DNA of 64,000 bases from a virus (lineage: Duplodnaviria > Heunggongvirae > Uroviricota > Caudoviricetes), in IMG/VR virus record IMGVR_UViG_2609459792_000007; one strand, given 5' to 3'. The notes below the pieces were generated by a model. It was not told the DNA's origin. It searched no databases and saw nothing but the letters and a program-made list of their open reading frames with translations. Positions 9,303 to 10,860 of the stretch are shown one piece after another. Both the position numbers and the translations under genes were made by a program. Numbering within the stretch: position 1 is the stretch's first letter; each line of letters begins with the position of its first letter.

Positions 9303-10081
9303 AAATACAATGATAAGTATTTACTTACTTATCTTATATGTATAAGATGACTTTGTTTTCGTTGAGACGCGACTGTTTGAACTTAAATACAAGTGCAAAC
9401 GAAGAAGTCTATCTGGCAGTAGCCTAATAAGCCAAACACCAGCGAGGTCAGTTTCCAGCCTCGTTACCGAAATGGGACACACTGAGCGAGTGTGATTGCA
9501 GAACGCAGGAGGGAACATTCATGTTCCCTCCGATGAAGTAACAGAATGGGCGGTTGGTATATTTTCAACTCCATATGACTCCCGGATTCTTAGCCACTGA
9601 CCGCCCATTCTGTTACGTCATTTTGTTCAATTATGTCGTTTATACTGGGTTAAAAAGCGGCGACGTAGCCCGGCTGGTATGGTCAGCCAGCACACAACGT
9701 TGAGGCCATTACATTTTTATCAATTCTAAGGTTCTATTCACAGAGATACCGGCGAGCGTTGATATGTAACATGTTGGGCAAACATTCAATCGGAGTAGTG
9801 GCCTCAACGTTGTGAAAATAGGATAGTTGTGTAGGTTTAACCACTGTTGCCATTGGTACCTGTTTTCACAACAAATGATTCCATACATCACATTGTATAA
9901 ATTACAAAGTAGGTGCTGTCCTCAGAAACATCATCTACTTAAATAATTTGCCTTCTACTATTGAGCGAAGTCGAAAGCGTCTGGCACTAACGAAAAGTGC
10001 AAGTAGCGGTGCGTTTCCTGGCAGAAACTAACACCGCCGCGATTGGCACTGTTGAGTAATAAATACTGGCAGTGCTGAATT

Positions 10082-10156
10082 GATGGTGTAGCTCAGCGGT
10101 AGAGCAGTTGGCTGTTAACCAACTGGTCGGTGGTTCGAATCCACCCACCATCGCCA
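10082..10156 (+). tRNA. tRNA-Asn (anticodon GTT)
   Basis: Hand-folded cloverleaf: acceptor gatggtg/caccatc, D-stem gctc/gagc, anticodon stem gttgg/ccaac with loop ctGTTaa, T-arm ggtgg-ttcgaat-ccacc, CCA end. Confidence 0.85.
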
Positions 10157-10161
10157 ATTTA

Positions 10162-10248
10162 GGGGAGTTAGTCCGTAGAGGTAGCGGGGTAGACTGTAAA
10201 TCTACTGTCATGGAGACTCGGGTGGTTCGACTCCATCACTCCCCACCA
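10162..10248 (+). tRNA. tRNA-Tyr (anticodon GTA), long variable arm
   Basis: Acceptor ggggagt/actcccc, anticodon stem gtaga/tctac with loop ctGTAaa, T-arm ggtgg-ttcgact-ccatc, CCA; D-arm not cleanly canonical. Confidence 0.6.
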
Positions 10249-10252
10249 AATT

Positions 10253-10328
10253 GCCGGTTTAGCTCAGTTGGTAGAGCGCCTGCCTTGTAAGCAGGATGTC
10301 AGCGGTTCGAGTCCGTTAACCGGCACCA
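10253..10328 (+). tRNA. tRNA-Thr (anticodon TGT)
   Basis: Acceptor gccggtt/aaccggc, D-arm gctc-agttggtag-agc, anticodon stem cctgc/gcagg loop ctTGTaa, T-arm agcgg-ttcgagt-ccgtt, CCA. Confidence 0.85.
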
Positions 10329-10552
10329 ATACAACGATAAGATCATTACGGTTAATCGTCGTTCATGTGCACAATGACTGGTCGAAAGGTAGTGATCTTA
10401 CCGTTGTGGTGGATTCGCAGACTGATGCGATAGCTTTCTTGGATGTTAGGGAAATGCGGCCGCAAATCTTCCCTTTCGCGAGCGGTGATCGTCCGTAGTC
10501 CTAATTGGCTGCACCGTATGCCGGAGATTCAGTACCGGCCACCACAACGGCC

Positions 10553-10639
10553 GGAGAGTAGGGAGCATGGTGCTCAAGCGGTCTTGAAAACCGTCCCATT
10601 GCGCAAGCGATGATGGTTCGATTCCATTACTCTCCGCCA
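10553..10639 (+). tRNA. Probable tRNA-Ser (anticodon TGA), class II
   Basis: Acceptor ggagagt/actctcc + G + CCA, anticodon stem gcggt/accgt loop ctTGAaa, variable-arm hairpin cattgc-gcaa-gcgatg, T-arm gatgg-ttcgatt-ccatt; D-arm atypical. Confidence 0.5.
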
Positions 10640-10794
10640 GACACAGCGTTGAGCGGTTTGGCCTTTTAATCAACTCGATTAAGACTCCGCTAACATAAAC
10701 CAGACCGCTCAACGCTGTGATAGACAATTACGGCAGACGTTCTTAACCATAGCTTGCTAACATCCTAGCAACACTTTTTTTCAGCGCAAAATTC

Positions 10795-10817
10795 AAAGGG
10801 GCTTCGGCCCCTTTTTT
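10795..10817 (+). terminator. Rho-independent terminator closing the tRNA region
   Basis: ggggc-ttcg-gcccc hairpin followed by T6; A-run upstream. Confidence 0.75.
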
Positions 10818-10860
10818 GCAACTGAAAGAGTCAAGTCTACGAACTTTGTAGGGAGAAATA

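Follow-up and report, generated by a model that had tools for sequence, protein, structure and literature searches.

The window analyzed here, a stretch of 64,000 nucleotides (nt) of viral DNA (Caudoviricetes; IMG/VR record IMGVR_UViG_2609459792_000007), belongs to an SSU5-like phage-plasmid whose nearest relatives are Escherichia coli plasmids and the phages CMS-2020a and Cyrano. It contains a tract devoid of open reading frames (ORFs) that harbors a cluster of tRNA genes, and we propose that positions 9355-10820 on the plus strand of this tract probably constitute a single RNA operon, extending from a promoter to two terminators, whose 5' core is related to transfer-messenger RNA (tmRNA). 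tmRNA is regarded as a universal bacterial RNA of fixed plan, in which an alanine-charged tRNA-like domain encloses the template for a tag. The proposed transcript would open with a leader of ~690 nt, the ~150-nt 5' part of which is tmRNA-like, with a resume context, a 10-codon tag frame (ANEEVYLAVA), a stop in a hairpin loop, a pseudoknot and further hairpins. This would be followed by tRNA-Asn, tRNA-Tyr, tRNA-Thr, a linking hairpin, a non-canonical tRNA-like domain, tRNA-Ser, another hairpin and the two terminators, with hairpins of the form CACAAC...GUUGUG linking or closing the tRNA and tRNA-like modules. An earlier sequence-only reading had described the tract as an ORF-free RNA region with tRNA genes embedded among long inverted repeats; this description holds in the main, with no ORF conserved on either strand among the clades compared and RNA structure conserved on the plus strand.

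A tmRNA-like core with a short tag frame

By sequence comparison, the first ~150 nt of the leader are homologous to, though diverged from, the mRNA-like part of tmRNA. They share with the latter a resume codon in an A-rich context (..AAAUACAAGU followed by GCA AAC GAA .. GCC UAA UAA), a short tag frame without a start, a stop codon in a hairpin loop and a downstream pseudoknot. The weak Rfam hits on the core are to tmRNA models only, namely beta_tmRNA for the window, tmRNA_permuted (26.3 bits) for Klebsiella phage MK54 and positions 56-295 of tmRNA (E = 2e-4) for phage wV8. For the homologue in Citrobacter phage Moogle, whose genome note lists an ssrA gene (PMC4319497), ARAGORN at default settings reports a permuted tmRNA with the tag ANDNVFLAVA, a double stop and the 'resume consensus'; this call takes its tRNA-domain pieces from among the neighboring tRNA genes and spans three intervening ones. 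Across lineages, five mutually complementary versions are seen for each of three pairings, namely the stems of H1 and of H2 and the loop-linker pairing of the pseudoknot.

The tag frame is conserved in the manner of a coding sequence. We compared 19 tag variants from the loci under study, with that of E. coli ssrA (ANDENYALAA and a double stop) included as one. The frame reads ANEEMYLAVA in HK620 and MK54, ANDDLMMAAA in P7, ANEDTYLAVA in SSU5 and ANDNQYLAVA in Klebsiella phage-plasmids, each with a single stop, and wV8 has the same tag and double stop as Moogle. Exactly 10 codons and a stop are present in 18 of the 19, the exception being locus L054, in which the stop is lost and one codon added. 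Frameshifting indels are absent from the frame in all of them (0/19) and occur, at 1-2 nt, immediately outside it; as such indels also lie 5' of the tag there is no conserved in-frame start, and neither a start codon nor a Shine-Dalgarno site is conserved among the variants. The C-terminus is consistently hydrophobic (LAVA or MAAA), and single changes within clades comprise 8 synonymous versus about 5-6 non-synonymous ones.

Distribution of the core

A sensitive BLAST search of phage records with 9355-9700 recovered 320 matching records, those of P1-like phages and of Klebsiella and Aeromonas siphophages among them. For the tract 5' of tRNA-Asn, a scan of viral contigs had yielded 74 more homologues, and a scan of genome contigs two more loci alone, in Buttiauxella and Kluyvera. 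Matches are also found in 258 of 5,426 complete E. coli genomes (~5%), with no feature annotated at the locus among the matches listed. The core, as the first 95-145 nt, is present in Felix O1-like phages, where it lies within the tRNA island, in HK620, a P22-like phage, with pR'/qut on one side and the late terminator tQ on the other, in the Klebsiella phages MK54, Carvaje, BU9 and KLPPOU148, in Aeromonas phage pIS4-A and in a siphovirus from bat feces. By these matches the core is widely distributed, and it is unannotated wherever checked. In HK620 the unit (1460-1815 of its locus) forms part of the late leader under Q antitermination, 5' of the holin gene, and would hence be made at the onset of late transcription.

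In P7 and D6, the operon consists of an ORF-free leader of ~660 nt, tRNA-Asn, tRNA-Thr, hairpins, the tRNA-like domain and tRNA-Ser(tga), followed by tciA/terB-like genes. Its leader begins with a diverged homologue of 9355-9625 that shows compensatory hairpin changes, for example CGAGG/CCUCG to CGGGG/CCCCG, and further downstream the window and P7 share 96% identity over 10391-10662. In P7, Op(ban), the C1 operator, is situated 5' of the leader and ban 3' of it; in D6 no operator is annotated in the region fetched.

Conserved structure of the leader RNA

Conservation of the ~780 nt that separate the last gene from tRNA-Asn extends over E. coli, Salmonella, Enterobacter, Citrobacter, Yersinia and Klebsiella elements, with 9355-9505 being nearly invariant among SSU5-like clades and the hairpin tips variable. 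The leader is non-coding, given the lack of a conserved ORF on either strand and the indels of 10, 7, 1 and 6 nt that separate SSU5-like from P1-like leaders. A minus-strand ORF at 9321-9518 (65 amino acids) was considered and rejected: its ends vary by clade, the Klebsiella copies are without a start codon, and the indels between P1-like and SSU5-like leaders break any frame.

RNA structure is conserved on the plus strand of the leader. Its stems are preserved between clades that are only 55-80% identical, with both compensatory and G-U changes. In an RNAalifold consensus of 12 representatives with 115 predicted pairs, 99.3% of the alignment cells are paired on the plus strand, 160 of them as G-U, against 87.9% on the minus strand; since these G-U cells turn into A-C mismatches on the other strand, the pairing is strand-specific, which points to selection on the RNA. 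Changes on both sides are seen in 14 pairs as against 7.5 ± 1.5 in shuffled controls, none of 500 of which reached 14, and 0-5 in slid controls, and the minimum free energy of the leader is -253 kcal/mol versus -193 ± 6.6 for shuffles (z = -9.1). Rfam nevertheless reports no family at threshold on the leader. Treating a lack of covariance-model hits as a refutation, as had been suggested, would have been misleading for an RNA that covaries so strongly.

Three long inverted repeats had been flagged earlier as perfect stems, near 9541-9611, 9692-9814 and 10633-10729. They are indeed found there, although longer or slightly shifted and 95% complementary. The first two, I1 (arms 9533-9554/9600-9621, 22 nt) and I3 (arms 9693-9712/9795-9814, 20 nt), are long arms of the leader, and the third, I4, is a hairpin of the CACAAC...GUUGUG family right after tRNA-Ser. 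The 10-bp hairpin that had been placed inside the first repeat lies instead just 5' of it. The inverted repeats had been taken to suggest structured small RNAs, among other possibilities; the helices are conserved, but 9541-9611 and 9692-9814 are not separate RNAs and belong to the single ~690-nt leader, whose tmRNA-like core and tag frame the earlier reading had not recognized. The repeat finder additionally detected the repeats of I2 and I7 (Table 1) and one at 10401-10412/10539-10550, which had not been noticed before.

In I1, 99.3% of cells are paired and six pairs show G-C/G-U changes; its positional counterpart is the CACAACAGGUAAG hairpin of P7, HK620 and MK54. Four pairs of I3 are changed on both sides. 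As I3 and I7 both use the GUUGUG at the base of I3, they are alternative pairings. The 3' portion of the leader is tentatively predicted to pair over long range with 9368-9371 and 9431-9437. A helix closing the 5' and 3' ends of the leader on each other was sought by an RNAduplex scan and rejected, as the results were messy and inconsistent among clades.

Table 1. Features of the putative RNA operon, by position in the window
Feature	Position	Strand	Description
Perfect palindrome	9312-9333		GATAAGTA-N6-TACTTATC; overlaps -35 of operon promoter
Promoter-like site	9312..9348	+	-35 TTTACT 9320-9325, 17-nt spacer, -10 TAAGAT 9343-9348; read from sequence, kept in relatives
tmRNA-like core	9355..9507	+	5' motif GUUUUCG..GCGAC, A-rich resume context, tag frame, stop-codon hairpin, pseudoknot with H1, H2, small hairpin 9497-9507
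Tag reading frame	9395..9430	+	GCA AAC GAA GAA GTC TAT CTG GCA GTA GCC TAA TAA; ANEEVYLAVA, double stop
H1 and H2 hairpins	9441..9494	+	H1 9441-9448/9458-9465; H2 9478-9483/9489-9494; covarying
Pseudoknot	9453-9457 / 9473-9477	+	H1 loop UUCCA with UGGGA; loop-linker pairing
Variable hairpin	9508..9531	+	GGAGGGAACAT/ATGTTCCCTCC, 11 bp; two-sided changes in 5/7 basal pairs
Long helix I1 (first flagged repeat)	9532..9622	+	25 pairs; tip variable in sequence
Two conserved hairpins	9631-9640/9659-9668 and 9673-9678/9686-9691	+	RNAalifold helices
Long helix I3 (second flagged repeat)	9693..9814	+	19 pairs; interior variable in sequence and length; arm motif CACAACGUUGAG / CUCAACGUUGUG
Helix I7	9809..9872	+	GUUGUGAAA / UUUCACAAC; repeat 9809-9822/9859-9872; compensatory changes in three pairs
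3' leader part	9873..10045	+	conserved single-stranded motif AUGAUUCCAUACAUC; hairpins ~9983-10002 and 10006-10037
tRNA-Asn(GUU)	10082..10156	+	ARAGORN; Rfam above gathering score; anticodon arm U36 A A C39 C40 A41
tRNA-Tyr(GUA), class II	10162..10248	+	ARAGORN; Rfam above gathering score
tRNA-Thr(UGU)	10253..10328	+	ARAGORN; Rfam above gathering score; anticodon arm U36 A A G39 C40 A41
Hairpin I2	10326..10412	+	repeat 10326-10349/10389-10412; begins at tRNA-Thr CCA
Non-canonical tRNA-like domain	10403..10548	+	closing helix 10403-10411/10540-10548, 9 bp, GUUGUGGUG/CACCACAAC
D-like hairpin of domain	10415-10430		loop GACUGA; 3 nt after 5' closing strand
Loop-loop pairing of domain	10421-10425 / 10529-10533		covaries: ACUGA/UCAGU, GCUGA/UCAGC, GUCGA/UCGAC
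T-like hairpin of domain	10520-10539		3' strand runs directly into closing helix, like tRNA acceptor/T-arm
tRNA-Ser(UGA), non-canonical	10553..10639	+	ARAGORN only
Hairpin I4 (third flagged repeat)	10642..10719	+	arms 10642-10661 / 10700-10719, 20 nt, 95% complementary
Two intrinsic-terminator-like hairpins	10754..10817	+	read from sequence; conserved in relatives
Terminator 1	10754-10781		UUGCUA-ACAUCC-UAGCAA and U run
Terminator 2	10798-10817		GGGGC-UUCG-GCCCC and UUUUUU

A candidate tRNA-like domain 3' of the tag

The suspicion of additional noncanonical tRNAs, raised earlier without indication of a place, finds its counterpart in a tRNA-like structure at 10403-10548, which is called by neither ARAGORN nor Rfam. 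In addition to its loop-loop pairing, its T-like stem covaries (GCCGG/CCGGC versus GUAGG/CCUAC). In HK620, MK54, BU9 and KLPPOU148 the domain occurs one hairpin after the tag core, giving a unit of ~370 nt, and Carvaje and pIS4-A carry the same closing helix, though they were missed by the motif search for the domain. We posit that this domain might serve as the tRNA-like partner of the tag core.

Two further candidates for a tRNA-like domain were discarded. In wV8, an element following the core (1698-1776 of its locus) has a G3:U70 pair and a UCU anticodon loop and no D arm; it passes the Rfam tRNA model at 31.7 bits and receives no ARAGORN call. At the equivalent place, however, an intact tRNA-Arg(UCU) is present in Moogle, so the wV8 element is more likely a decayed tRNA-Arg. 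When the ARAGORN thresholds were lowered further, a setting of 80% recovered the tag in 11 of 12 sequences and one of 60% was needed for the window, but many random 'tmRNAs' appeared as well, and these calls hence provide no evidence for a tRNA-like domain.

Several observations weigh against the operon being a tmRNA-related functional unit and have to be set beside the similarities described above. An enclosing domain of the tmRNA kind, with a 7-bp acceptor stem bearing G3:U70, a T arm and a 3' ACCA, was found in no lineage, and neither the window nor P7, HK620, MK54 or wV8 yields a tmRNA call with ARAGORN, even when its thresholds are reduced to 95%. The Rfam tmRNA models (RF00023, RF01850 and RF04321) score 10-26 bits, far under the gathering score of 47. 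As promoters are positioned directly 5' of the GUUUUCG motif, the RNA would begin at the analogue of the tmRNA D-loop and would have no 5' strand of an acceptor stem. The domain at 10403-10548 is located 3' of the tag and does not enclose it, being ~900 nt away in the window and P7 with three tRNAs included in between; it has U3-A70 or G3-C70 and not G3:U70; a CCA after it is encoded in HK620 alone (CACCACA-G-CCA); and both SSU5 itself and the Felix O1-like phages are without it. Moreover, the synonymous excess in the tag is based on few events, the long-range helices of the leader, themselves tentative, show one-sided changes of the G-U type alone and no compensatory doubles, and no expression data for the operon were found. 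The core is thus a tmRNA relative by homology and yet lacks the tRNA-like domain by which a tmRNA is defined.

tRNA genes and the hairpins that link them

The four tRNA genes recognized by the sequence-only reading are recovered (Table 1), and its remark that tRNA-Ser is atypical also proves apt: among Rfam models, tRNA-Sec fits this gene best, with 46.6 bits where 47 are required. The D stem of the gene comprises 4 bp and carries a loop of 5 nt, its acceptor and D stems are 3 nt apart, a GNRA loop caps its variable arm, and compensatory changes are seen between its copies. It is common to P1-like phages, though unannotated in P7, and in the D6 record tRNAscan-SE assigned it no amino acid. The tRNA complement of the relatives varies, with SSU5 and the Enterobacter and Citrobacter elements having tRNA-Asn only, Klebsiella elements mostly tRNA-Asn and tRNA-Ser, Cyrano lacking tRNA-Tyr, and the Yersinia pestis plasmid pMT1 having none. 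Phage N4 contains an ORF-free tract of ~1.5 kb (862-2382 of its locus) with tRNA-Asn, a class II tRNA(tga), tRNA-Thr and tRNA-Pro; this tRNA block is 78% identical to that of the window, and nhmmer did not detect the leader core there.

The AriB nuclease of the PARIS defense system cuts the E. coli tRNAs for Lys(UUU), Thr(UGU) and Asn(GUU) between positions 40 and 41, within a motif consisting of U36AAU39C40 followed by A or C at 41; substitution of U39 in tRNA-Lys(UUU) stops the cleavage, and phage T5 variants of the target tRNAs neutralize PARIS (PMC12409363). Inside this recognition motif the window's tRNA-Thr has G39 and its tRNA-Asn C39, as opposed to U39 in the host tRNAs, and we infer that both may resist AriB. 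tRNA-Tyr is the reported target of retron-Eco7 (PMC12673091).

Hairpins I2, I3, I4 and, more divergently, I1 share arms of the form CACA(A/G)CG(U/A)U(A/G)AG ... CU(Y)A(A/C)CG(Y)UGUG, and exact matches to the 11-mer arm motif are confined to this region within the window. Copies of the family start at tRNA CCA ends (tRNA-Thr, tRNA-Ser and the Klebsiella tRNA-Asn) or after hairpins resembling tRNA 3' ends. Their GUUGUG can pair either backwards, producing a hairpin, or forwards, as the closing helix of the next tRNA-like module, with the forward pairing I7 being supported by compensatory changes. The 20-bp stem of I4 is identical in E. coli and Klebsiella elements while its loop is variable, and at the place of I2 both locus L002 and P7 have two hairpins and a mini tRNA-like spacer. 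The interiors of the hairpins of Carvaje (~1625-1700 of its locus) and BU9 (~1000-1140 of its locus) contain the T-arm-like sequences GGGUUCGAGUCCC, GGCGGUUCGAAUCCGC and CAGGUUCAAUUCCUG, and it looks as if decayed or embedded tRNA-like modules were present at their tips.

Limits and genomic neighborhood of the proposed operon

Promoters of the sigma70 type are observed 10-20 nt 5' of GUUUUCG in six lineages. Stronger sites than that of the window (TTGACA-N17-TAGATT or TATAGT) lie at an equal distance from this motif in MK54, Aeromonas pIS4-A, Flyfo, wV8 and Moogle. A consensus scanner scored the promoter at 9312-9348 under its cut-off, and the terminators at 10754-10817 are likewise absent from its list. 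Both the E. coli and the Salmonella clades conserve the palindrome at 9312-9333, which resembles a repressor operator and is a candidate for one.

The tract has the same flanking place in all relatives, 3' of a DNA ligase gene and four small genes, and the gene cargo on its 3' side varies: the E. coli relatives that are closest carry a Gp49-family gene and one for glutaredoxin, pMT1 the caf1 capsule locus, Enterobacter the invertase gene hin and Klebsiella phoH. An ORF of 367 amino acids (11664-12767), which lies 0.8 kb 3' of the RNA operon and matches a gene annotated as a site-specific integrase in the closest plasmid, is found where a region begins in which relatives vary in their genes. 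pMT1 (2001-2520 of its locus, corresponding to 9313-9817 of the window) retains the promoter, the tag core, I1 and I3; its homology ends at the 3' end of I3, and caf1R/caf1M of the F1 capsule locus come next, indicating that the F1 capsule island sits in a truncated copy of the RNA operon. In Y. pestis small RNA sequencing, the two pMT1 small RNAs that were located, sR082 and sR083, map outside this element.

Possible functions and alternative explanations

We posit that the island is expressed in the active phase of the phage and would combine translation rescue with counter-defense. The phage tRNAs would substitute for host tRNAs cleaved by anticodon-arm nucleases, and the tmRNA-like RNA would handle the resulting stalled ribosomes and tag their nascent chains. 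In this picture the operon would be transcribed and processed, and its tag translated by trans-translation. More tentatively, these enterobacterial phages might possess a new architecture of trans-translation RNA, in which the tag domain is placed 5' of a self-contained tRNA-like domain of non-alanine type, or is split from it by tRNA genes, and is co-expressed with nuclease-resistant tRNAs, thereby rescuing and tagging ribosomes stalled by tRNA-cleaving defenses. P1-like, SSU5-like (including the Y. pestis pMT1 remnants), HK620-like and Felix O1-like elements, and several Klebsiella and Aeromonas phages, may all belong here.

It is also conceivable, albeit in our view rather unlikely, that the core is a mimic or decoy of tmRNA that is never aminoacylated and binds SmpB, ribosomal protein S1, ribosomes or a host sensor. 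This would agree with the lack of a canonical tRNA-like domain or G3:U70 in any lineage, and with Felix O1-like and SSU5 versions that dispense even with the non-canonical domain, and a precedent for partial phage tmRNAs exists in the 'TLD-only' RNA of mycobacteriophage DS6A, which is thought to titrate SmpB (PMC4131195). However, a decoy needs no intact 10-codon frame, whereas the frame is free of frameshifts and has an excess of synonymous changes, and its hydrophobic C-terminus is conserved, as in real degradation tags. The same coding-type conservation speaks against the leader being a large ornate RNA of the ROOL or GOLLD kind, possibly with an architectural role, in which the tag would be ancestral baggage or a coincidence. 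The size of ~690 nt, the rich structure, the arms with variable tips and the adjoining phage tRNAs do fit such an RNA, all the more as ROOL and GOLLD are phage RNAs often found near tRNA islands, with tRNAs sometimes in the GOLLD linker (PMC12286853). Yet the respective models (RF03087 and RF01998) have no match over 9200-10950 even at E <= 10, and the part common to all lineages is the ~150-nt tag core and not the large arms, so that we regard this explanation as improbable.

With respect to the long repeats, a possible interpretation, advanced with reserve and one that would add to the rescue hypothesis, is that they act mainly as signals for processing or stability, such as RNase III or RNase E sites or barriers to 3' exonucleases. 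Stems of 20-25 bp, about two helical turns, have a length that would fit RNase III, and I2, I4 and the Klebsiella hairpin start at, or no more than 2 nt from, a tRNA CCA end, comparable to the E. coli proline tRNAs that are matured by a single RNase E cut just after CCA which removes a downstream hairpin (PMC5291269); for I4 a processing role is plausible. On the other hand, I1 and I3 are not located 3' of tRNAs, the arm sequence (CACAACGUUGAG) is more conserved than a generic double-stranded RNA site requires, and GUUGUG also forms the closing helices of tRNA-like modules. That the repeats act instead as DNA, either as recombination sites (resembling attC or miniature inverted-repeat transposable elements) that reassort tRNA cassettes, or through binding of a dimeric protein to the palindrome CAACGTTG, strikes us as very improbable. 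Module content does vary among relatives, with breakpoints at the family arms (9817 in pMT1 and the 3' end of I4 in L014, along with deletions between CACAAC copies), and there is an integrase gene 0.8 kb downstream; but ordinary recombination at short repeats suffices to yield such breakpoints, the 160 plus-strand G-U cells are A-C mismatches on the other strand, and the I4 palindrome is broken while the pairing between its arms persists (CAGCGUUG/CAACGCUG). Further, the arms misfit the attC R''/R' consensus and have no extrahelical bases. Membership in attC sites or the transposable elements was rejected on the grounds that CACAACG and CGTTGTG are each one position off RYYYAAC and GTTRRRY, that the stems are near-perfect, and that the G-U pairs are confined to one strand.

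Comparison with known systems

The phage core resembles E. coli tmRNA (ssrA) in its A-rich resume context followed by GCA AAC GA, in a 10-codon tag that ends in hydrophobic Ala/Val with a (double) stop in a hairpin loop, and in the pseudoknot and hairpins downstream of the tag, and its 5' stretch UUCG..GCGAC UUUGCG is similar to ssrA GGAUUCGACGGGAUUUGCG. It differs in having no G3:U70 acceptor stem, or T arm plus ACCA, around the mRNA-like domain, in a 5' end fixed by a promoter just before GUUUUCG, and in its location within a tRNA operon, with an expansion to about 690 nt in SSU5-like elements. Two-piece (permuted) tmRNAs are approached through the best weak Rfam matches (RF01850 and RF04321) and through the arrangement in the window and P1-like phages, where the tag and tRNA-like pieces are separate segments of one precursor. 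In permuted genes, however, the acceptor piece comes first and the coding piece opens with the 5' strand of the acceptor, whereas in the phage operon the tRNA-like domain comes after the tag and forms a closed unit of its own.

ROOL and GOLLD are similar in being large (>500 nt) structured RNAs of phages and prophages beside tRNA islands, a resemblance of context only, as the conserved core of the phage leader is small and tmRNA-like. The tRNA cluster of phage T4 is co-transcribed with the stable RNAs species 1 and 2, whose role is unknown; no tag frame is known in these. With regard to the ban operons of P1 and P7, the P7/D6 operon is homologous to that of the window, but the P1-type leader and tRNA-Ser have been left unannotated in P7.

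A tag-encoding relative of tmRNA thus resides unannotated in some of the best-studied groups of coliphages and in ~5% of complete E. coli genomes, where it always accompanies tRNA genes or belongs to a late leader and has no canonical tRNA-like domain. Should it be functional, it would represent a new construction of ribosome-rescue RNA and would tie phage tRNA islands to the rescue of ribosomes stalled by anticodon-arm nucleases of the PARIS or retron-Eco7 type; should it act as a decoy, phages would have a new way of interfering with trans-translation. In either case the annotation of a widespread plasmid family is corrected, and P1, HK620 and Felix O1 offer tractable systems. In a limited literature search, we found no report of a tmRNA-like RNA in P1-like, SSU5-like or HK620-like elements, and a few mycobacteriophages together with Bacillus phage G were the only phages listed as having copies in an earlier exhaustive survey of ssrA (PMC4131195). 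Phage-borne relatives of ssrA include those of the mycobacteriophage Bxz1 group and phage G, the TLD-only RNA of DS6A and the 'ssrA' of Moogle; the mycobacteriophage tmRNAs differ from the present element in being canonical genes, whereas the Moogle 'ssrA' is the same element as the core in the window.

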